59,481 bases of DNA from assembly GCA_947646115.1 (NCBI GenBank), contig CANSFH010000004.1:1-59481 (forward strand), given 5' to 3'. This DNA is from an uncultured Mycoplasma sp. GTDB lineage: Bacteria > Bacillota_I > Bacilli_A > RF39 > UBA660. How positions within the stretch are numbered: the first letter of the stretch is position 1; every line of letters begins with the position of its first letter. The position numbers and the translations under genes were made by a program. Positions 40,651 to 58,372 of the stretch are shown here, one piece after another. Below the pieces are notes generated by a model that was given only the letters and a program-made list of their open reading frames with translations, was not told the origin of the DNA and made no database searches.

Positions 40651-42066
40651 TTAAAATATAGATTCTTTTTTACCTAAATAGATAATACCACTAATTGCAA
40701 CAATAGCAAAACTAGACATTAATAAGATATCATATTTTAATTTATCTAAAGTTGCAGGGTTTTCTATTTCATCTTTAGGTACTTCTGTTTCAGCGTTCTT
40801 TATGTCTTCATAGACTAAAGCATAAGTGGAAAACTTATCTGTTTCGAACGTTAGCATTTTATTATCTTCAGATATTTTAGTTTCTATTATATCTATAATT
40901 CCATTATGATCACGTAAGATATAATATTTTCTTGTATATCCTGCACTTGGTTTTAATTTATCAGGAATTAAAATGCTTAAGGCTATTTTACTTTCAAGTT
41001 CAGTTAAATTACCAATAACGTTATTTGTACTTTTATCAATTATATTAATTCTTATATCAAAATAATCAGCTATAGTGCCATTTTTAATTTTTTCAGCCAT
41101 TTTATTTTTTACTTCTTCATTTGGCTCAAAATCTTTAATATTTAAGGCAACATTTACATCTTTTTTAGTAATATCTACTTCATTTGTTTTATTAATTGCA
41201 TCTATTAATATTTTGTTTACTTCATTAGAATCAACTTTTATTTGTATATCAGTTGTATTTTCATCAACGGTAATATCACGATCATATTCTTTTAGTCCAA
41301 CTACAAAGGCATTATTTTTTTCTTTACATTCATAGCCTTCTGCTACAAATTCGGTTACATCAAAATCATAGGTACCACCTTTTATAATTGGTGGAACATA
41401 TATAGCGTCTCCATATTCTGAAAGACTAAATTTGCCTTTTTCTCCTTTAAATATTCCACCTTTTAAAGTAAGTTCACTTACAAATCCATCTTCAGCGGTA
41501 GTAATACCAACTGTTGCAAGACCTTTACTACTAAATTCGCCGCTTTCAATAGTAGCTGTTGCGTGTTCATCTAACCATACAGCGTAATATCTTTCAGTTC
41601 CAGTAGCTTTTACATTTCTTAAAGTAACATTTAAAGTATTAAAAATATTTATACCTGTAGTAGTAGTAATATTTTCTAAAACAATACCAGATGTTTCTAT
41701 TTCATCGCCTAAAAATAAAGAATAATCTGCCCCTACTTTAGTCTCAAATGTTCCGTTTTTAATTGTTATATTGTTACCTAACCATACGGAATTTGGAGCT
41801 TGGCCTTTAACTCCTGTAAAAATTGTATGACCATTTAAATCTAATGTTGAGTTATCTGGAAAGAGCCAATTAAAATAAATTCCATATTTGTTAGAATCAG
41901 ATACATCAACATCATCAAGTAAAGTAATTGTTTCACCTTCTTTAACTTGGGCAACGGCTTCATCAAATGTCTCGTATTCAGTATCAGCTATTTTTACTTT
42001 AGCATTTACAGTACTAGGCATTATCATTAAAACCAACAAAATAATAGAAATAAATATTTTTTTCAT
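40651..42066 (-). CDS. Secreted/cell-wall surface protein with beta-helix-like region and NPxT-type sorting signal
   Basis: Signal peptide MKKIFISIILLVLMIMPSTVNA; C-terminal ENPATLD, TM segment and KK tail. Confidence 0.8.
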   Translation of the reverse strand: MKKIFISIILLVLMIMPSTVNAKVKIADTEYETFDEAVAQVKEGETITLLDDVDVSDSNKYGIYFNWLFPDNSTLDLNGHTIFTGVKGQAPNSVWLGNNITIKNGTFETKVGADYSLFLGDEIETSGIVLENITTTTGINIFNTLNVTLRNVKATGTERYYAVWLDEHATATIESGEFSSKGLATVGITTAEDGFVSELTLKGGIFKGEKGKFSLSEYGDAIYVPPIIKGGTYDFDVTEFVAEGYECKEKNNAFVVGLKEYDRDITVDENTTDIQIKVDSNEVNKILIDAINKTNEVDITKKDVNVALNIKDFEPNEEVKNKMAEKIKNGTIADYFDIRINIIDKSTNNVIGNLTELESKIALSILIPDKLKPSAGYTRKYYILRDHNGIIDIIETKISEDNKMLTFETDKFSTYALVYEDIKNAETEVPKDEIENPATLDKLKYDILLMSSFAIVAISGIIYLGKKESIF

Positions 42067-42238
42067 TTTTCTCAACTCCTAAAATCATTAATATTATAGC
42101 ATACACCTAAAAAATGTAAATATTCCTGTATAATATTTACGTTTGTATTTACTAGTGCTTTACATAGATGCATAGTTTTTGCAATTCTTAATACAATTTT
42201 ATGCATAAATAATATATAATAATTATGGATGTGATAAT

Positions 42239-43057
42239 GTGACAAAATTAAAAGTAAAGTGGAATAATATTATTATTTTATCTATAGTAATAGCTTGTAT
42301 TATAATATTTATTTTATTAGGCTTTAAAACTTTTAGATGGAAAATGGACAGCAATGATATAAAAAAACAAATTGACGATATAAATGAAATAATCAAAGAG
42401 GAAGTAATACTTGATTCTGATAAAACAGAAATTATTGAACCAAATGAAGAAATAAATAAAGATAATCCTTATCTAGATTATATAAAAATGAATATGATTA
42501 ATGTTAATTTGGATGATTTAAAAAAAATTAATTCTGACGTTAAAGGATGGATAAAAGTAAATGGAACAAATGTCAACTACCCTTTTGTTCAAGCAAAAGA
42601 CAATAGCTACTATTTAACTCATAGTTTTAATAAATCATATAATCAAGCTGGATGGGTATTTTTAGATTATAGAAATAGCGAAATAAACAAGCATATAATT
42701 TTATATGCTCATGGTAGAAGTGATAAAACTATGTTTGGTTCTTTAAAAGATATTTTAACTAATGGTTGGTCAGAAGATAAAAATAATTTTGTTATTAAAA
42801 TGTCAACATTCAAGGAAAATTCTTTATGGCAAATATTTAGTGTATATCGTATTCCAACAACAAGTGATTACTTACAAATTGAATTTGAAAATGATGATAA
42901 ATTTCTTGAATTTGCTAATATATTAAAAAATAGAAGTTCTTATAATTTTAATACTAATATCAGTAAGGATGATAAAATATTAACATTATCAACATGTTAT
43001 AACAACAAAGAAAAAGTTGTTCTTCATGCAAAATTAATAAAAAAAGAAAATAAATAA
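42239..43057 (+). CDS. srtB: Class B sortase
   Basis: GWIKVNGTNVNYP, YYLTH, GWVFLDYRN, LYAHG, LTLSTC. Confidence 0.9.
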   Translation: MTKLKVKWNNIIILSIVIACIIIFILLGFKTFRWKMDSNDIKKQIDDINEIIKEEVILDSDKTEIIEPNEEINKDNPYLDYIKMNMINVNLDDLKKINSDVKGWIKVNGTNVNYPFVQAKDNSYYLTHSFNKSYNQAGWVFLDYRNSEINKHIILYAHGRSDKTMFGSLKDILTNGWSEDKNNFVIKMSTFKENSLWQIFSVYRIPTTSDYLQIEFENDDKFLEFANILKNRSSYNFNTNISKDDKILTLSTCYNNKEKVVLHAKLIKKENK

Positions 43058-43355: not shown

Positions 43356-43378
43356 AAAAAAGCTATCCTTTGATAGCC
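43356..43378 (-). terminator. Intrinsic terminator ending the cell-wall cluster
   Basis: gctatc-cttt-gatagc hairpin with a minus-strand U-tract. Confidence 0.65.
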
Positions 43379-43379
43379 T

Positions 43380-44456
43380 TTAATTATTATATATCTCTTC
43401 ATAACATTTATCTTTACGGTATTTAATAAAAGTATCATTTAACTCAATTACTTTATTATGGATATCTTGAATAACTTTAGTGTAATTACTATATCCATGA
43501 GTAGTAAAAATTGATAAAGCATAGGGACTACCATCCAAGTTTAATCCTATATCATGGAAATTTATATCCCAGCTACCATATTTATGGTACATTTTTACTC
43601 CTTCTCTATTAAAGGCATTATGATCATCATTGTCCATTATATTTAGCAAAAATGGTCCATATTCTTTATCTTTGCTTATAATTCGATAAGCTTCTTTTAA
43701 ATAAATGTTAGTATCTTCTGCAGTTTGATTACCAAATTTATCCCCGCCAGTTAAGATAACTTTTCCACCCAAAGACAATCCATAATTTTTAAGATTATCA
43801 AAACCAATATAATCAATTAACATTAAGTGTGCTGAATTATCACTTACTGAAATAGCATAACTAATTAAATCTCGAAGACTTACTTGATCACCTATTTTAT
43901 GTTTTGCTAAACCAGAAGAATAACCTGCAATATATTTATTTTCATAAATTATTTTTTCTTCATCTAAATTAAGTTTTTTATTAATATCTTCATTATTTTC
44001 TTCATTAGCAAAATGAGAACTATCAGGATTACTAGCTTTATTAATTAAGTATAAAGCATCAACTAATTTTATTAAACTACAGCCATAGTAAATTTTTGTA
44101 GCGTCATATTTATAAGTTAAACCATTCTCTAAATTTTCAAAATAAACTGAAGCCTGATAATTATTTTCTTTAATTAAATTATCTATTGCATTCATAGCAT
44201 TTGTTAACTCTGTTGTTTTTTCTGCTTCATTATAAGGACTTATTAAACAAGCATCATAAGCCTTTTCCTTCCTCTTTTTCTCCTCATAAGCTTTTTTGCT
44301 TTCTTCTTCAGCAATTCTTCTAGCTTCTTCTTCAGCTTTTAAAGCATTATTACTATCAATTAAATAATATATACCATAACCTGCTAAAACACATATAATT
44401 AATACGAGCAAAATCCCCTTTTTTAATTTTCTTTTTTTCTTCATACTCTTACTCAC
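43380..44456 (-). CDS. Membrane-anchored serine hydrolase (class A beta-lactamase / DD-peptidase fold)
   Basis: SLIK (SxxK), SDN and HKYG motifs; N-terminal TM and coiled coil. Confidence 0.85.
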   Translation of the reverse strand: MSKSMKKKRKLKKGILLVLIICVLAGYGIYYLIDSNNALKAEEEARRIAEEESKKAYEEKKRKEKAYDACLISPYNEAEKTTELTNAMNAIDNLIKENNYQASVYFENLENGLTYKYDATKIYYGCSLIKLVDALYLINKASNPDSSHFANEENNEDINKKLNLDEEKIIYENKYIAGYSSGLAKHKIGDQVSLRDLISYAISVSDNSAHLMLIDYIGFDNLKNYGLSLGGKVILTGGDKFGNQTAEDTNIYLKEAYRIISKDKEYGPFLLNIMDNDDHNAFNREGVKMYHKYGSWDINFHDIGLNLDGSPYALSIFTTHGYSNYTKVIQDIHNKVIELNDTFIKYRKDKCYEEIYNN

Positions 44457-46284
44457 TCACAAAATATACTTGATACCAAATTAAGAAGATTAAAATATTA
44501 TATAATTTTAAACTGCTTCTTTTAATATCATTATAATGATCATCTAATAATTTATTAATATATTCTTTATCAAAAAATTTTGATACATATGGTTTATTAA
44601 AATATTCCTTAATTATTTTATAATATTTTTCTTCACGTGCCCACGCTCCAAAAGGAACAGGAAAGCCTAGTTTTTGTCTTTTTGCCCATTCTTCTGGTAG
44701 TTCTTCAAAAGCAATATTTCTAAAGATATGTTTTGTTTCTTTATCTTTAACTAAATATTTAGATGGTATTTTTTTAGCAGTATTAAATACTTCTATATCT
44801 AAAAGTGGTACCCTAAGTTCTAAAGAGTTTGCCATTGACATTTTATCAGCTTTTAAGAGAATATCTTGCGGTAACCAAAAATTCATATCAATATACATCT
44901 TTTTCGTTACATCGCTTTCATATTTTACTTCATCACATAATGGTTTTAATAAATCACCAATAGTTTCATTATTACGAGTTTTATTATTTAAAATTTGGTT
45001 AGCTTCTTCTTCAGTCATATAAGAACCATGACCAATATATCTTTCATAGATTGGTTTACCATAGCGGATTAACGTATTTTGTCCAGGAAAATGAGGAAAT
45101 GGTTTTACAATATGACCAATAAAGGAACGAATAAATAAAGGTATTTTAGTATATATACGTAATGATAAAGGTTCATAATACTCATTATATCCTCCAAACA
45201 TTTCATCACTACCTTCACCAGATAAGACCACTTTAACTTCACTACTTGCTAATGCAGATAAGAAATATAAAGGAACAGTAGATAAATTAGCATGTGGCTC
45301 ATCAGTATGATAAACAATTGTTGGAAGTATTTCAAAAAATTCATCACCACTTACATATTTACTATAGTTTTTTATACCTATTATATCTGATAAGTCTTTA
45401 GCCATTTTTGTTTCATCAAATCCTTTTAAATCAAAACCAACTGTAAATGATTTATCAGGATGAGCAAAAGATGCTACATATGAAGAATCAACGCCCCCAG
45501 AAAGATAGGTACCTACTTCTACATCACTTGTAATTTGATGATACTTAATCGAATCTTCTAAAACATTTTTTAGTTCTTCGCGATATTCATTATAGCTTTT
45601 TTTACCTTTACTGTATTTAACTTTAAAATAACGCTTTACTTCTAAATTTCCATCTTTATATTTGAAATAATGACCAGGTTTTAACTTAAATACATTTTTA
45701 AAGAATGTTTCTTCGTGAACAGAATATTGAAATATTAAATACATTTTAAGAGCATCAGTATTTACTTCTTTTTTAAAATCTGGATGTTCTAAAAAAGTTT
45801 TTATTTCTGATGTAAACATAAATTCATTTTTACTTAAATAGTAATAAAATGGTTTTATACCAAAATGGTCACGAGCTCCTACTAACTCTTTTGTTTTTTT
45901 ATCATATATAACAAAAGCAAACATACCTCGTAAACGTGGAAATAAGTCTTCACCATATTCCTCATATCCATGAATTATTACTTCGGTATCTGTTTCTGTA
46001 GCAAATTTATGGCCTTTGCATATAAGTTCTTCTTTTAATGCTTGATAATTATAAATTTCACCATTAAAAATAATTACTTTATCTTTAGTTTCATTATATA
46101 TTGGTTGAACTCCACTATTTAAATCAATAATTGATAATCGACGATGACCTAAAGCTATTACATCATCAGTATAATATCCTGCATCATCTGGACCACGGTG
46201 TTTAATTCTATCAGCCATTTTTTTAATTATAACATTTTTTTCTTTTTTGGGTTTATTATCAACAAATCCTACAATTCCGCACAT
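44449..46284 (-). CDS. asnB: Glutamine-dependent asparagine synthase / amidotransferase (copy A)
   Basis: MCGI, HRGPDD, GHRRLSIID, FNGEIYN, LSGGVDSS, SGEGSDE, SLELRVP. Confidence 0.93.
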   Translation of the reverse strand: MCGIVGFVDNKPKKEKNVIIKKMADRIKHRGPDDAGYYTDDVIALGHRRLSIIDLNSGVQPIYNETKDKVIIFNGEIYNYQALKEELICKGHKFATETDTEVIIHGYEEYGEDLFPRLRGMFAFVIYDKKTKELVGARDHFGIKPFYYYLSKNEFMFTSEIKTFLEHPDFKKEVNTDALKMYLIFQYSVHEETFFKNVFKLKPGHYFKYKDGNLEVKRYFKVKYSKGKKSYNEYREELKNVLEDSIKYHQITSDVEVGTYLSGGVDSSYVASFAHPDKSFTVGFDLKGFDETKMAKDLSDIIGIKNYSKYVSGDEFFEILPTIVYHTDEPHANLSTVPLYFLSALASSEVKVVLSGEGSDEMFGGYNEYYEPLSLRIYTKIPLFIRSFIGHIVKPFPHFPGQNTLIRYGKPIYERYIGHGSYMTEEEANQILNNKTRNNETIGDLLKPLCDEVKYESDVTKKMYIDMNFWLPQDILLKADKMSMANSLELRVPLLDIEVFNTAKKIPSKYLVKDKETKHIFRNIAFEELPEEWAKRQKLGFPVPFGAWAREEKYYKIIKEYFNKPYVSKFFDKEYINKLLDDHYNDIKRSSLKLYNILIFLIWYQVYFVSE

Positions 46285-46285
46285 T

Positions 46286-47497
46286 TTAACTCCTCCAGTA
46301 ACTATTTTTATATTCTTTATAATAATTAAACCAACGTTTACGAAGCATTAAAAAACGTTTAAAATTTCTGTCACTCGGAGCATCCATTGGTTTAACAACG
46401 TTTTTCCAAAGTTTTAGAGCTTCCTTCTTAAATTCCTCATTAGTTATATATTTTTTTATTATTCCTCGAGGAACAAATGATAGCATTAATTTTTCATCTA
46501 AAAATTCAAATTTATGCTCCTTATTGTTAAGGCAATCATCAGTTATAGTTTTTACTAAATTTTTGCCTAAAGCTGCAACATAGTAACTACTTCGCCCTTG
46601 TCTTGCATTAATTTCTAAAATTTTAAAAGTATTATCTCGAACATCATACTTCATATCAACTTCTGCAAATCCACGATAATTTATACTTTCCATAAACTCT
46701 TTTAAAATTTTTACTTCCTTTTTTACATCACCTTTAGTAGTATTAAAGCCATTAATTAATACTGCGGCATTGCCTACCATACTTGAGGTTCTTTCTTGTA
46801 AACCAATTTGGGCAAATGTCATAAATTCGCATTTTCCTTTAGTATTTACATATAAAACAGCATCAAATAAAGCATCATCACCACCAGGAATAAATTCTTG
46901 AATAATTAACTTATCATTGTAACCGTTTTCTTTAATTAGATTTATAGTTTTATTTAATTCTTCATAGCTTTCTATTTTATAGATTTTCTTTTTACCATCA
47001 AAACTAATATGATTATATATTACAACATTAGCTGGTTTTAAAACTACAGGATATGTTAAATCTTCTGGAACTTTAACTTTCTTTTTACAATCATAATAAA
47101 AAGTACTTGGAAAAGATAATTTACTATCTTGATAAGTTTTATGAAAATTCTCTTTATTAGTTAAACTTTTAATAACTTCGGGAGATGGAAAATTGAAAAC
47201 ATAACGATCCTTTAATTTTTCTTTATTAGCGCTAACAAACTCGGTATAAGTTTCATTAGTACTAATTAAAACTATTTTACCTTTATGTTCATTAGCAAAT
47301 TTCTCTAAAATACGTAAAAATCCTTCTTCACTCCATATATCACTTTCATAAGAAACATTTAATATATTGGAATAAGTTGTAAATGAAAGTGGACTTTTAC
47401 CTATAACATAAGGCTTTTTATGAAATGCTTCATAACAGCATCTCGACATATAATATGCATTAGGATCTGTTCCTAAAATTAATACTTCAAAATCCAT
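46286..47497 (-). CDS. ATP-grasp carboxylate-amine ligase, D-aspartate ligase (Asl/YxbA)-like
   Basis: ILGTDPNAY, YPVVLKP, IIQEFIPGGD, EVDMKYD, EINARQGRSSYY. Confidence 0.82.
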   Translation of the reverse strand: MDFEVLILGTDPNAYYMSRCCYEAFHKKPYVIGKSPLSFTTYSNILNVSYESDIWSEEGFLRILEKFANEHKGKIVLISTNETYTEFVSANKEKLKDRYVFNFPSPEVIKSLTNKENFHKTYQDSKLSFPSTFYYDCKKKVKVPEDLTYPVVLKPANVVIYNHISFDGKKKIYKIESYEELNKTINLIKENGYNDKLIIQEFIPGGDDALFDAVLYVNTKGKCEFMTFAQIGLQERTSSMVGNAAVLINGFNTTKGDVKKEVKILKEFMESINYRGFAEVDMKYDVRDNTFKILEINARQGRSSYYVAALGKNLVKTITDDCLNNKEHKFEFLDEKLMLSFVPRGIIKKYITNEEFKKEALKLWKNVVKPMDAPSDRNFKRFLMLRKRWFNYYKEYKNSYWRS

Positions 47498-47522
47498 TTT
47501 AATTCTCCTTAATAGTTAGTTT

Positions 47523-48662
47523 TTATTTTTCTTTATAAATTCTTGGTACTCTACTAGTTATCATATTAAACAAATGATAACCATTTATATTTAATCTTCT
47601 TTTAGTCTCATTAATAGAAATATTATCACCAAATATCTCAACAATATCTCCTACTTTAATAGTTTCATCTACTTTAACCATAATCATATCCATAGAATCA
47701 CTTACTATTTCATAACGGTTACCATTAATTACAACATATCCATAATCTTTAGTTACCCCATCAGCATAACCAATAGCTATTGTAGCAATATAGCCGGAAC
47801 TTTCCATTATATAACTAGCATTATAGCCAACTCGTTCTTTAGCTTCTACTTTTCTAATAGCTATAACACTTGAATAAAGACTAAAAGCGGTTTTTAAATT
47901 AAGATCATTTTCACTTATAAAATCTATTTCCCTTTTTAATAATTTATTTTTTAATTTACTTTTAAAACTCGTACTAGGTTTAACACTACCACTAAAGCCA
48001 TACATTATAACTCCTAATCTTATCCCATTAACACAAGGAATTTTTTCATGACTAACAAAAGTTAAACTGCGATCAAAGTGAACTATTGGAATACTTTTTA
48101 AGTCAATTCCTGATAACAAATATAAAACTTTTTCTAATTGCTGTTTATAAAAAGAATCTCCTCTACCACCTGTAGCAAAATGAGTATAGACGCCTTCTAA
48201 TTCTAAATGCTTATCTTTATTAATTAAGGTGTATGCTTCTTCAAGTTCTAATTTATCTTTAAAGCCTAGTCTATTCATTCCAGAATCAATTTTAAAATGT
48301 ACTTTTAAATTTTCTTTAAATTTATTATCTAACAATTCTTTTAAATAAGTTAAACTTTCCACTGTAATTGTAATTTTATTTTTTAAAGCAACATTTATAT
48401 ATTTTAATTCTATTGGTTCTAAAATAAGAATAGGAATATCTTTATAAGCTGCTCTAATATTCATTGCTTCATCAAGACTTGATACTGCAAGATAATTTAC
48501 TCCACCTTCTATTAATGAAGGAACAATTTGAATTCCATGACTATAAGCGTTATTTTTTACAACTCCTATATAATAATCATAATCACTATATTTAGTAGTT
48601 ATTTCTTTAACATTATTCCTAATAATATTTTTGTTAATTAAAGCATAAGTATTACGATACAT
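47523..48662 (-). CDS. alr: Alanine-racemase-fold PLP racemase (divergent)
   Basis: VVKNNAYSHG, KIDSGMNRLG, EGVYTHF, VGY, IGYADG, SMDM. Confidence 0.82.
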   Translation of the reverse strand: MYRNTYALINKNIIRNNVKEITTKYSDYDYYIGVVKNNAYSHGIQIVPSLIEGGVNYLAVSSLDEAMNIRAAYKDIPILILEPIELKYINVALKNKITITVESLTYLKELLDNKFKENLKVHFKIDSGMNRLGFKDKLELEEAYTLINKDKHLELEGVYTHFATGGRGDSFYKQQLEKVLYLLSGIDLKSIPIVHFDRSLTFVSHEKIPCVNGIRLGVIMYGFSGSVKPSTSFKSKLKNKLLKREIDFISENDLNLKTAFSLYSSVIAIRKVEAKERVGYNASYIMESSGYIATIAIGYADGVTKDYGYVVINGNRYEIVSDSMDMIMVKVDETIKVGDIVEIFGDNISINETKRRLNINGYHLFNMITSRVPRIYKEK

Positions 48663-48676
48663 ATTAGACTCCTTTT

Positions 48677-50506
48677 TTATGCAACAGCATAGTCTAAAAA
48701 GAACACTTCATACCATTTTAAGAATGCATAAATAGCCCAAACTTTTTTATAAGTGTCTTTTTTTCCTTTTAAAGAGCTATCTAAAAGTTTCAAAATATAA
48801 TTTTGATCAAATAACTCTTTAACATATTCTTGTTTAAAAGTATTTTGGATTTCTTCGTGAACGTCACTTTCACTCATCCATGCACGAAGTGGTACTGGAA
48901 ATCCTAATTTTTTCTTTTTATAAGACTCATTTGGAATAACTTGTTTCGCTGCTTCCCTTAATGCTACTTTAGTATTTACTTTAGTTACTTTTTTGTCCAT
49001 TTCAAGAGAACTTGCTAAACTAAATACTTCTTTATCAATAAATGGAACTCGAAGTTCTAAAGAATTTGCCATAGTCATACGATCAGCTTTATGTAATATA
49101 TCTTTTACAAGCCAGAAATTAATATCTACTGCTTGCATTTTTATCAAATCATTTTTATCTTTAAATTTATTAAAAATTGGTGCTGTTAAATCTTTGTTTT
49201 TAATTTTACTTTTATGACCAATTACTTTACTTGCTTCTTTGTCACTAAATACACGATTCATGCCAATATATTCATCTTCTAATTTAGTTCCTCGTCTAAC
49301 TAAGAAATTACGTCCTCTAAATTCAGGAAGATAACCTAAAACTACTGCGACCATATGACGCATAAAATATGGTATTTTATTATAAAAGCTCATGTCTACT
49401 GTTTCTCGGTAAGTGTTATAGCCAGCAAAGAATTCATCAGCTCCTTCACCGGATAATACTACTTTAACATCACGACTAGCAAGTTCAGATAAGAAATATA
49501 GTGCAATTGATGCTGCATCACAAAAAGGTTCATCCATATGATACATTATTTTAGGAACAATTTTCATGTATTCATCTTTATTTATTTTACGACTTATATT
49601 TTCAATATTTAAGCGATTTGCTAAATCTTCAGCATAAGCAATTTCACTATATTTAGGAATATCATATCCAACAGTGTATGTTTTATCAGGACGTGCTAAA
49701 CTTACAATATATGATGAATCAATGCCACTTGATAAGAATGAACCTATTTCAACATCACTTTCTAAATGATGTTTAACTGAATCTTCCATTGCCTCGCTAA
49801 TTTCTTTAACCGCCTCTTCATAACTTCTTTTTTGTTCTTTAAAATCATAAGCATAATATTCTTCTATTTTAATTTCGCCATTTTTGTAAGTTAAGCTATG
49901 TCCAGGATTAAGACGATTTACACCTTTAAAAAACGTTTCGGTAGTAGGAGTAAAACTAAATGTAAGATATGGAGCTAAAAGTTCTTTATTTAATTCTTTT
50001 ATAAATTTAGGATGTTCTAAAAATGATTTGATTTCAGAGCCAAACATAAAAGTTCCATCATTTACATAATAATAAAATGGTTTAATACCAAAATGATCAC
50101 GAGCACAAAATAAAGTTTCATTCTTTTTATCCCAGATAGCAAAAGCAAACATACCACGTAATTTATTTGGTAAATCACTACCCCATTCTTCATATCCATG
50201 AACTAATACTTCTGTATCACATTTCGTAGTGAATTTATGTTTTTTCTTTTTAAGTTCGTTCATTAAAGCTTTATAATTATAAATTTCCCCATTAAAAACA
50301 ATAACTATATTTTCATCTTCGTTATACATCGGTTGTTTACCTGCATTAATATCTATAATAGATAATCGACGGTGTCCAAGTGCTACATTTATGTCTGTAT
50401 AATAACCTTCGCCATCAGGTCCACGATGAATAATTCTATCAGCCATTTTTTTAATTATTTTATCTTTGTTTTTTTCTTTATCTATAAAGCCAACTATTCC
50501 GCACAT
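48677..50506 (-). CDS. asnB: Glutamine-dependent asparagine synthase / amidotransferase (copy B)
   Basis: MCGI, HRGPDG, GHRRLSIID, LSSGIDSS, SGEGADE, SLELRVPF. Confidence 0.93.
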   Translation of the reverse strand: MCGIVGFIDKEKNKDKIIKKMADRIIHRGPDGEGYYTDINVALGHRRLSIIDINAGKQPMYNEDENIVIVFNGEIYNYKALMNELKKKKHKFTTKCDTEVLVHGYEEWGSDLPNKLRGMFAFAIWDKKNETLFCARDHFGIKPFYYYVNDGTFMFGSEIKSFLEHPKFIKELNKELLAPYLTFSFTPTTETFFKGVNRLNPGHSLTYKNGEIKIEEYYAYDFKEQKRSYEEAVKEISEAMEDSVKHHLESDVEIGSFLSSGIDSSYIVSLARPDKTYTVGYDIPKYSEIAYAEDLANRLNIENISRKINKDEYMKIVPKIMYHMDEPFCDAASIALYFLSELASRDVKVVLSGEGADEFFAGYNTYRETVDMSFYNKIPYFMRHMVAVVLGYLPEFRGRNFLVRRGTKLEDEYIGMNRVFSDKEASKVIGHKSKIKNKDLTAPIFNKFKDKNDLIKMQAVDINFWLVKDILHKADRMTMANSLELRVPFIDKEVFSLASSLEMDKKVTKVNTKVALREAAKQVIPNESYKKKKLGFPVPLRAWMSESDVHEEIQNTFKQEYVKELFDQNYILKLLDSSLKGKKDTYKKVWAIYAFLKWYEVFFLDYAVA

Positions 50507-50821
50507 ATATTATCCTACTTTCTTACAAAAACTTCCTATTATTAGTTTTTGTTCTTACTAAATAATTATACCATGGATAATATGCGATGTAAATTAAAGG
50601 GAATATTTTTTACACATATTCTTTAGGGAAAATAGACATATTTGCTAATTTATCAGTTACATTTTATTATGTTATATTTAATTTGGAAGATTCAATATCT
50701 TGGATATCTACCTAAACTAAATGGAGTCTTGATAAAGCGAAAACTAAAACTTTTTACATAAAAGTTTAGTTTTTAATAAAAAGCATTTATTTTAAGGCGT
50801 ATATGTAAAAAGTTAGAATAG

Positions 50822-57595: not shown

Positions 57596-58372
57596 TCATC
57601 TATCGAAATAAAAGCCAAAGAAAGCTCCTAATATAAAAATAATTATTAAATATAAATTGAGAGCTTCTATTATATCTAAAAATAAAATTAATATTGAACC
57701 AACCATAAAAGCAAAAATTATACTATGTGTTTCTTCTTTTTTATTTTTTAAAAGATAGTTCATTATATAACATATAACAACTATTCCAAACACCATTCCA
57801 AATAAATATATAAGAAAGATATTACTAAAAGGATTTGCTAGAATATTTAAAACAAATTCATAAACGCCTAGCATCATAAAGATAGCTGTACCGCTTATAC
57901 CAGGAACAATTGAAGTAAATGCATCAATTATACCTAATACTATAACATATAAATAATTGAATACTGTACCTGTAAATATAAAATTAGTTGAAGTATCAAG
58001 ATAAGTCGTTAGAAACATTAAGGATAAGAATATGAAAAATATTAAAATATTTTTTAAATTTAATTTTAAATTTTTACTAAAAGGAATTAATGTCCCTAGA
58101 ATTAGTCCTAAAAATAAATACATAGTTTCATTATAATAATTAGTAAGTAAAAAAAGTATTATTTTACTGAATATGATAATAGCTAAAAATACCCCTATAC
58201 CAAAATTAAGTAATAATTTAAAATGTTTTTTAGGATTATCAAAAAAGTTAGTAACTGCTTCTAAAACATTTTCATAAATGCCTAAAGTCATAGCAAGCAT
58301 TGAACCACTTACTCCAGGAATAATTTTGCCAAGACCGACAATAAAACTTTTAAGTATTAAAAAAAGATTCAT
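57596..58372 (-). CDS. DUF368-family membrane protein (putative undecaprenyl-phosphate translocase)
   Basis: Duplicated IPGVSGS / VPGISGT motifs, multi-TM. Confidence 0.88.
   Translation of the reverse strand: MNLFLILKSFIVGLGKIIPGVSGSMLAMTLGIYENVLEAVTNFFDNPKKHFKLLLNFGIGVFLAIIIFSKIILFLLTNYYNETMYLFLGLILGTLIPFSKNLKLNLKNILIFFIFLSLMFLTTYLDTSTNFIFTGTVFNYLYVIVLGIIDAFTSIVPGISGTAIFMMLGVYEFVLNILANPFSNIFLIYLFGMVFGIVVICYIMNYLLKNKKEETHSIIFAFMVGSILILFLDIIEALNLYLIIIFILGAFFGFYFDR

Follow-up and report, generated by a model that had tools for sequence, protein, structure and literature searches.

In Lactococcus lactis, Enterococcus faecium and lactobacilli, the D-Asp (D-iso-Asn) bridge of the peptidoglycan depends on a racemase, an ATP-grasp ligase and an AsnB-type amidotransferase, namely RacD, AslA (Aslfm) and AsnH. 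Other AsnB proteins, including that of Listeria, amidate meso-diaminopimelate (mDAP). The only characterised relatives of the ligase that we describe here act on UDP-N-acetylmuramic acid (UDP-MurNAc)-pentapeptide (PMC4155827). We analysed a 59,481-nucleotide (nt) stretch of DNA, the window, which is contig C4 (CANSFH010000004.1) of a 1.23-Mb, 46-contig assembly with about 26% GC from an uncultured Mycoplasma sp. of the RF39 lineage (GCA_947646115.1; genome G000 in our analysis). It carries an operon in which an Asl-family ligase is combined with an Alr-fold racemase, two AsnB amidotransferases and a beta-lactamase-fold protein. That the operon serves peptidoglycan precursor synthesis around the ligase, as a preliminary description of this DNA had proposed, is well supported because the racemase-ligase core is conserved and linked to AsnB and MurE genes. 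We consider it somewhat probable, on the strength of these comparisons, that the operon is a peptidoglycan branch module which would add an amidated D-amino acid to a cytoplasmic wall precursor.

The five genes point in one direction and are closed by a terminator, and the list of open reading frames gives exactly the coordinates claimed for them earlier. The features of the operon are:

48677..50506, minus strand: asnB_up, an AsnB-family glutamine-dependent amidotransferase (609 aa, starting MCG), assigned by its domains and its place in a "second AsnB" clade

47523..48662, minus strand: Alr-fold racemase dependent on pyridoxal 5'-phosphate (PLP), of the ligase-linked clade (379 aa), assigned by domains, catalytic residues and entryway changes

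46286..47497, minus strand: P0001, Asl-family ATP-grasp carboxylate-amine ligase (403 aa), assigned by family homology, its separate clade and its modelled fold

44449..46284, minus strand: asnB_dn, the ligase-linked AsnB amidotransferase (611 aa), assigned by orthology to ligase-following AsnBs and by its tree clade

43380..44456, minus strand: the fifth gene, a membrane-anchored serine hydrolase of class-A beta-lactamase fold (358 aa), assigned by its motifs and a Beta-lactamase2 match

50565..50593, minus strand: candidate sigma-70 promoter TTTACA-17 nt-TATAAT with an extended -10 TG, a consensus match only (11/12)

43358..43381, minus strand: intrinsic-terminator-like hairpin, beginning at the last stop codon of the operon, with a 10-pair stem and a 4-nt loop and followed by the T-run TTTAGTTTAA

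From the first to the last gene, the intergenic spacing is 14, 25 and 1 nt, followed by an 8-nt overlap. The promoter candidate is the top match in the scanned region and precedes the ATG of asnB_up by about 60 nt. Base composition shows no trace of recent transfer. In this genome nusG is found about 5.8 kb beyond the operon start, and in genome G009 about 380 nt separate nusG from the module downstream of it.

Relatives of the ligase were found in at least 456 genomes, one genome per species, nearly all of them uncultured gut or rumen Firmicutes; the counts given here come from the best 80 loci, and comparisons within the genus cover 19 genomes. Genomes carry G labels (G008 is the closest relative of G000) and loci carry L labels. 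Proteins 61-89% identical to P0001 are plentiful in gut metagenomes. An Alr-like racemase is encoded immediately upstream of the ligase at 76 of the 80 species-level loci, spanning Bacilli and Clostridia; AsnB follows the ligase at at least 37 of them, and a MurE homolog is located within 6 kb of it (<=6 kb) at 36. On long contigs of uncultured gut Bacilli and Lachnospiraceae, Alr-like racemase, ligase and AsnB form a repeating unit in this order, and in a rumen Lachnospiraceae metagenome-assembled genome (MAG) this triad is located between ftsEX-pcsB-ctpA on one side and a gene for an EctB-like diaminobutyrate transaminase with murE on the other. The neighbours that recur across loci are murE, murT/gatD, femAB, ftsEX-pcsB and murJ-like genes. 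The fifth gene is present only in G000 and G008 and missing from all 80 best related loci, and a different membrane protein occupies its place in G009. The census of 80 loci and the comparison with G008 and G009 thus define the racemase-ligase pair as the conserved core, AsnB as a common third partner and the fifth gene as a lineage-specific addition. The penicillin-binding-protein-fold hydrolase that the preliminary description had counted into the run is indeed there, but it is part of the module only in these two genomes. Within the genus the module is accessory (3/19 genomes), and another 3/19 carry an Asl-like ligase together with a second MurE. A single ligase of the family is present in 48 of 50 module-bearing genomes. 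The sole cultured isolate among the 80 loci is Lachnospiraceae bacterium YSD2013 (L040), and none of these loci ties the module to an organism of known wall chemotype.

These counts make it highly improbable that the genes are unrelated housekeeping neighbours, i.e., an ordinary Alr, two asparagine synthetases and an unrelated ATP-grasp enzyme. Both AsnBs and the racemase do pass generic NCBIfam equivalog thresholds, and the racemase is the only catalytically intact Alr-fold enzyme of the genome; against this stand the racemase-ligase adjacency in 76 of 80 species of Bacilli and Clostridia, a clade-specific racemase signature that coexists with a canonical alr in four genomes, the absence of both AsnB and the ligase-linked racemase from most genus members, and the co-occurrence of ligase and AsnB (p = 3.7e-5). 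We give just as little credence to a product outside the peptidoglycan, either a D-amino-acid peptide metabolite or a capsule or teichoic-acid decoration. The repeated linkage to murE, murT/gatD, femAB, ftsEX-pcsB and murJ-like genes speaks against such a product, as do the absence of exporter and nonribosomal peptide synthetase genes from the operon and the restriction of the characterised relatives to UDP-MurNAc-pentapeptide (PMC4155827), although the top structural match of the ligase, 3vot, is a dipeptide-making L-amino-acid ligase and one ligase of the clade is followed by a CapA-like PGA_cap gene instead of AsnB.

Both AsnB proteins of the operon consist of GATase_7 and Asn_synthase domains, have an MCG start (Cys2) and score 525.8 (asnB_up) and 524.3 bits (asnB_dn) against TIGR01536, with a cut-off of 267. 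They are 49% identical to each other, and the assembly holds no further AsnB copies. The AsnB encoded after the ligase in relatives is the ortholog of asnB_dn (69-73% identity), which in the AsnB tree falls into a ligase-adjacent clade (support 99/95) shared with AsnBs from the triads of Bacilli, Lachnospiraceae and Acutalibacteraceae. asnB_up belongs to the "second AsnB" clade (support 100/100), together with G009_up, the tandem second AsnBs of L096 and L102 and the solo AsnBs of G003 and G010, two genomes that have no ligase. This clade is co-located with the module in G000, G009, L096 and L102, and the evidence linking asnB_up to wall genes is weaker than for asnB_dn. Neither operon AsnB groups with the Listeria/Bacillus AsnB pair, which forms a separate long branch. 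An AsnB outside the asnB_up clade is present in 6/6 ligase-bearing and 0/13 ligase-free genus genomes (Fisher p = 3.7e-5). Since 10/19 genus genomes have no AsnB whatever, AsnB is not a housekeeping gene in this genus. The two separately conserved clades, together with the co-occurrence of ligase and AsnB, argue that asnB_up and asnB_dn would perform two distinct amidation functions. This prediction, already made in the preliminary description, is well supported.

A layout with two amidotransferases is also found in an abundant Oscillospiraceae/Acutalibacteraceae lineage, where AsnB, an Asl-like ligase, RacD and AsnB are encoded in one operon (L032:3099-8830). The two AsnBs of this operon are mutual closest relatives, and their arrangement therefore arose independently by local duplication.

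For the ligase, Pfam returned only a weak ATP-grasp_3 match (21.7 bits, cut-off 23.2), and a PDB sequence search gave no match. Using its AlphaFold model (pLDDT, the predicted local distance difference test score, of 91.6), we obtained ATP-grasp enzymes as the top Foldseek matches with a probability of 1.00; the nearest PDB folds are an L-amino-acid ligase (3vot, the top match), biotin carboxylases, PurD, PurK and PylC. As references we used the Asl proteins of three Lactobacillus species, L. curvatus, L. fermentum and L. crispatus, whose genes lie on chromosome pieces that are entered in the databases as plasmids. The ligase is 28.9-31.6% identical to them at 96-99% query coverage (E-values 6e-40 to 4e-47), and the E-values are 5e-44 to 4e-47 for the Asl genes that adjoin racD (L. 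curvatus) or asnB (L. crispatus). The gene order is aspS, racD, ligase in L. curvatus and asnB, ligase in L. crispatus, whereas the L. fermentum ligase gene stands alone. The reference lactobacilli possess D-Asp bridges and aslA genes (PMC4155827; PMC13631041). Twenty family representatives come from MAGs and Macrococcus only and include no Enterococcus or Lactococcus Asl. "D-aspartate ligase" is the JGI name for proteins 67% identical to P0001 and is an annotation by homology. Judged by these sequence comparisons, the ligase is an Asl-family member and not an ortholog of the characterised D-Asp ligases (EC 6.3.1.12). The earlier assignment to Asl-like ATP-grasp enzymes thus stands for family and fold and falls for orthology, given the low identity and a separate clade. 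We also considered that the ligase might replace Ddl; this was ruled out by the canonical ddl-murF pair in the genome (327.9 bits).

The genome encodes MurC, MurD, MurE, MurF, Ddl, MurI and MurT/GatD, and the window additionally holds an S66 LD-carboxypeptidase, a class B sortase and a DUF368-type undecaprenyl-phosphate translocase, all three of which the preliminary description had listed; the DUF368 gene (PF04018, 102.4 bits) is located at 57596..58372 on the minus strand. The true wall which that description had argued for in an RF39-like lineage holds up, but it is not new, as it has been published for most RF39 (PMC10868615). MurE has a DNPR motif and scores 483 bits against the diaminopimelate (DAP) ligase model NF001126 (cut-off 373), and it does not pass the Lys model. 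This agrees with the mDAP-type pathway predicted for RF39 (PMC10868615). Because MurE is of the DAP type, stem Lys, the acceptor assumed at first, is unlikely in this genome, and the branch, if made, would sit on a DAP-type residue.

Several observations concern the third residue of the stem peptide in this and related genomes. An operon on another contig (G000:C19:19294-22818) encodes a PLP enzyme of the cystathionine gamma-lyase/synthase family, DapF and the MurE with the DNPR motif, and dapA is absent from 18/19 genus genomes. Taken together, this suggests either DAP salvage or a lanthionine/cystathionine-type residue at position 3. A residue of this type occupies position 3 in Fusobacterium. 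In three sister genomes (G006:C9, L009; G013:C8, L010; G014:C17, L011) an operon encodes a Cys/Met-PLP enzyme, DapF, MurE, an Asl-like ligase and a second MurE. The ligase of these genomes is a different one, 36% identical to P0001 and 37-41% to Lactobacillus Asl, and the second MurE (507 aa, without DNPR) is 37% identical to a Collinsella MurE adjoining asnB. G006, G013 and G014 may build two kinds of stem peptide. Downstream of the triad, rumen and gut Lachnospiraceae (L033-L057, L060 and L063, YSD2013 included) encode an EctB-like diaminobutyrate transaminase and a MurE in which EDAR replaces DNPR, a hint that their wall may contain 2,4-diaminobutyrate. In G059:C3 (L125, L126) we found two ligases of the alr-linked clade, one beside a racemase and the other beside a MurE2-type ligase without a racemase. 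The conjugative plasmid pl546 of Bacillus mycoides (L024, CP067054.1) carries a decayed cassette of asl (frameshifted), racD and asnB near the gene for an Amj lipid II flippase; in view of this cassette, D-Asp branch modules may travel on plasmids.

The racemase consists of Ala_racemase_N and Ala_racemase_C domains and scores 245.9 bits against TIGR00492 (cut-off 168). It retains K36, Y40, R131, H161, S199, R215, G217, Y280, Y299 and Y362; in Geobacillus stearothermophilus numbering, the retained residues comprise Lys39, Tyr43, Arg136, His166, Arg219, Tyr265', Tyr284' and Tyr354. The entryway is rebuilt, with D171 changed to G166, E172 to R167, N203 to R198, R309 to D322 and I352 to N360. The middle-layer positions Asp171, Arg290', Arg309' and Ile352 accordingly read G166, K305, D322 and N360, which departs from the canonical entryway, whose middle-layer residues are strictly conserved in all Alr structures (PMC3146814). 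In addition, a basic insertion of about 20 residues lies between the two domains. In a survey of 85 ligase-linked racemases, the retained catalytic residues proved nearly invariant, and the entryway changes extend across the clade. D171 is Gly in 85/85 sequences, the N203 position is R or K in 79/85, the R309 position is Glu or Asp in 67/85 and Arg in none, and the I352 position is Thr, Ser or Asn in 84/85. E172 is hydrophobic in most clade racemases and Arg in this genome. The interdomain insertion, about 25 residues long and basic (median net charge +7), is present in 85/85 racemases. In the Alr structure papers we found no described role for Asn203. Four genomes hold a second alr with fully canonical residues only a few kb from the module, and this, together with the entryway signature, identifies the ligase-linked racemase as a distinct paralog. 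The loss of acidic and gain of basic entry residues would suit an anionic substrate.

A second Alr-fold gene of this genome (G000:C43:430-1422), with orthologs in G003, G005 and G012 (L117-L119), has lost all catalytic residues (K39S, Y43F, R136/H166/R219 replaced, Y265 deleted) and scores 47.6 bits against the cut-off of 168. In most genus genomes this dead gene is the only Alr copy and a D-amino-acid transaminase (Dat) is absent, yet the canonical ddl-murF pair is retained. RacD was not found in G000, whose single PF01177 member scores as MurI (TIGR00067, 179 bits), and none of the genus genomes has a second PF01177 member. We rejected the inverse conclusion, from missing RacD to D-Asp production by the Alr-like enzyme, because sister species with a more Asl-like ligase also lack RacD. 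A transaminase as the source of the D-amino acid was rejected as well, as PF01063 occurs in no genus genome.

We tentatively propose, with a little less than even confidence, that the ligase-linked Alr clade is a neofunctionalised racemase with an intact core, a rebuilt entryway and a basic lid insertion. It would be either the first Alr-fold racemase for aspartate or another acidic amino acid or, together with the ligase, the source of a D-Ala-type branch or D-Ala-amide cap; either way, it would represent a new Firmicutes peptidoglycan chemotype in several hundred uncultured gut species. If so, the branch in this genus would be placed on a DAP-like residue, in a background that lacks dapA and contains the Cys/Met-PLP-DapF-MurE operon.

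Starting from the observed gene content, operon structure, racemase-ligase pairing, linkage and AsnB clades, we infer where the branch is attached, in which order the enzymes act and which D-amino acid is used, as follows. The Alr-fold racemase would make a D-amino acid, whose carboxyl group the Asl-family ligase would activate as an acyl phosphate and couple to a free omega-amine, that of the position-3 residue in the UDP-MurNAc-peptide, a residue of the DAP type here. asnB_dn would then amidate the free carboxyl of the new branch, while asnB_up may amidate a different carboxyl, for which the distal one of the position-3 residue is the likeliest candidate. The fifth protein, with its beta-lactamase fold, would be a later addition; it may act outside the cytoplasm, as a peptidase adapted to the modified wall. 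Within this branch reading, D-Asp (giving D-iso-Asn) is our tentative first candidate and D-Ala or another small neutral residue a possible second, held with slightly less assurance still. D-Asp is suggested by the family membership of the ligase, its AsnB partner, the comparable operon that combines RacD with two AsnBs and the restriction of nearly all module-bearing genomes to one family member (48/50).

Several points weigh against this proposal. A DAP-type stem can cross-link directly and needs no bridge, and direct cross-linking fits the accessory distribution of the module in the genus. About half of the 80 loci have no AsnB within 6 kb. The remaining points concern D-Asp. In a quick maximum-likelihood tree of 137 members, in which the Asl references are three Lactobacillaceae proteins, the alr-linked ligases form a clade of their own (Shimodaira-Hasegawa-like approximate likelihood ratio test, SH-aLRT, 99), apart from the Lactobacillaceae Asl clade. 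This clade carries the substitutions C122Y, E234Q, A246V and N279E at sites that are 71-86% conserved in the remaining family. The inner Tyr gate is kept across the racemase clade (Y265 in 85/85, Y354 in 82/85), and the Tyr265'-Tyr354 constriction has been tied to strict alanine specificity (PMC3485190), so its retention speaks for a small substrate, for instance alanine. Finally, an alr-type and an Asl-RacD-AsnB module, each accompanied by a separate AsnB, occur together in one MAG, a single and possibly chimeric bin, and this co-occurrence argues that the two module types are not equivalent. Since RacD is missing and the partner racemase has the Alr fold with the Tyr265'/Tyr354 gate, D-Asp is only one candidate substrate. 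The D-Asx bridge of the preliminary description is favoured by the ligase family and the AsnB partner, as one candidate beside D-Ala or another small residue.

The same points feed the strongest rival, in which the module installs D-Ala or another small neutral D-amino acid, either as a branch on the position-3 amine or as D-Ala that is linked by its amino group to a carboxyl of the stem and converted to D-alanine amide by AsnB. In favour of this rival, the racemase scores above the threshold of the equivalog model for alanine racemases, with every catalytic residue and the Tyr constriction in place, and the genus has neither another functional Alr nor Dat; the ligase substitutions at otherwise conserved sites and the genome with both modules fit as well. 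For a plain Alr, however, the clade-wide replacement of three of the four middle-layer entryway residues and the +7 insertion are unexpected. Four genomes also retain a canonical alr a few kb away. A D-Ala-amide on D-Glu reportedly occurs in Renibacterium and some Arthrobacter. In the carboxyl-joined version, D-Ala leaves the tightly linked AsnB nothing new to amidate, and amidation of D-Glu is already covered by MurT/GatD; a D-Ala-amide would require the ligase to work the opposite way to Asl and activate the carboxyl of the peptide. On balance we regard this D-Ala rival as unlikely, and continue to favour the branch module with an amidated D-amino acid, D-Asp among its candidates.

The product of the fifth gene has an N-terminal membrane helix and a Beta-lactamase2 domain (72.5 bits), with the motifs SLIK (SxxK), SDN and KYG, the latter where class A enzymes have KTG. 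It scores 38.9 bits against the bla_class_A model NF033103 (cut-off 200), which supports membership of the fold family but not an identity as a beta-lactamase; its best PDB match, 3cjm, is a "putative beta-lactamase". Beyond the terminator, a class B sortase (42239..43057, plus strand; TIGR03064, 158.5 bits) adjoins the gene for a secreted 474-aa protein without a family match (40651..42075, minus strand), which ends in NPATLD, a hydrophobic stretch and KKE. This protein is probably a SrtB substrate, as judged from its C-terminus. Its anchoring point would be the free amine that the neighbouring operon may modify.

Peptidoglycan side branches determine which transpeptidases and hydrolases act on the wall, where sortases anchor proteins and how lysozyme and NOD recognise wall fragments. 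Since the racemase-ligase module is carried almost exclusively by Firmicutes of the gut or rumen that have not been cultured, an entire wall chemotype may so far have escaped description. The racemase signature, moreover, offers a clean test case for functional change in alanine racemases.

Compared with the mDAP-amidating AsnBs (L. plantarum AsnB1, B. subtilis AsnB, Listeria AsnB and C. glutamicum LtsA), the operon AsnBs share the long form and the MCG N-terminus but lie outside the Listeria/Bacillus AsnB branch. Linkage to murE is common to AsnB1 (PMC4155827), the Collinsella asnB and many module loci, and the stem here is likewise of the DAP type. The racemase shares with the Alr enzymes of G. 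stearothermophilus (1SFT) and Streptococcus pneumoniae (3S46) the fold, the PLP lysine, Tyr265', Arg136, His166, Arg219 and the three inner-layer tyrosines, and differs from them in the clade-wide replacement of the middle-layer entryway and in the basic insertion. In pyrrolysine synthesis, PylC joins the carboxyl group of D-ornithine to N-epsilon of L-lysine, acting on free lysine. It has the ATP-grasp fold (Foldseek E = 3.5e-13), and its chemistry resembles the joining of a D-carboxyl to an omega-amine proposed here; with only 13% identity and a TM-score of 0.52-0.60, this is an analogy and not family membership.

The closest described system is RacD/AslA/AsnH, which follows the same logic of racemase, ATP-grasp ligase and AsnB. 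The ligase described here is a full-length Asl homolog (29-32% identity), and the adjacency of AsnB and Asl is also seen in L. crispatus, that of racD and asl in L. curvatus. RacD is PLP-independent, whereas the racemase here is a PLP-dependent Alr-fold enzyme; neither in open-access full texts nor in a 2026 review of D-Asp synthesis (PMC13631041) did we find an Alr-fold enzyme described as the partner of an Asl-type ligase. The module further differs from RacD/AslA/AsnH in that its ligase forms a separate clade, its stem is of the DAP type and not Lys/Orn, a second AsnB clade is co-located with it, and it is accessory within the genus.

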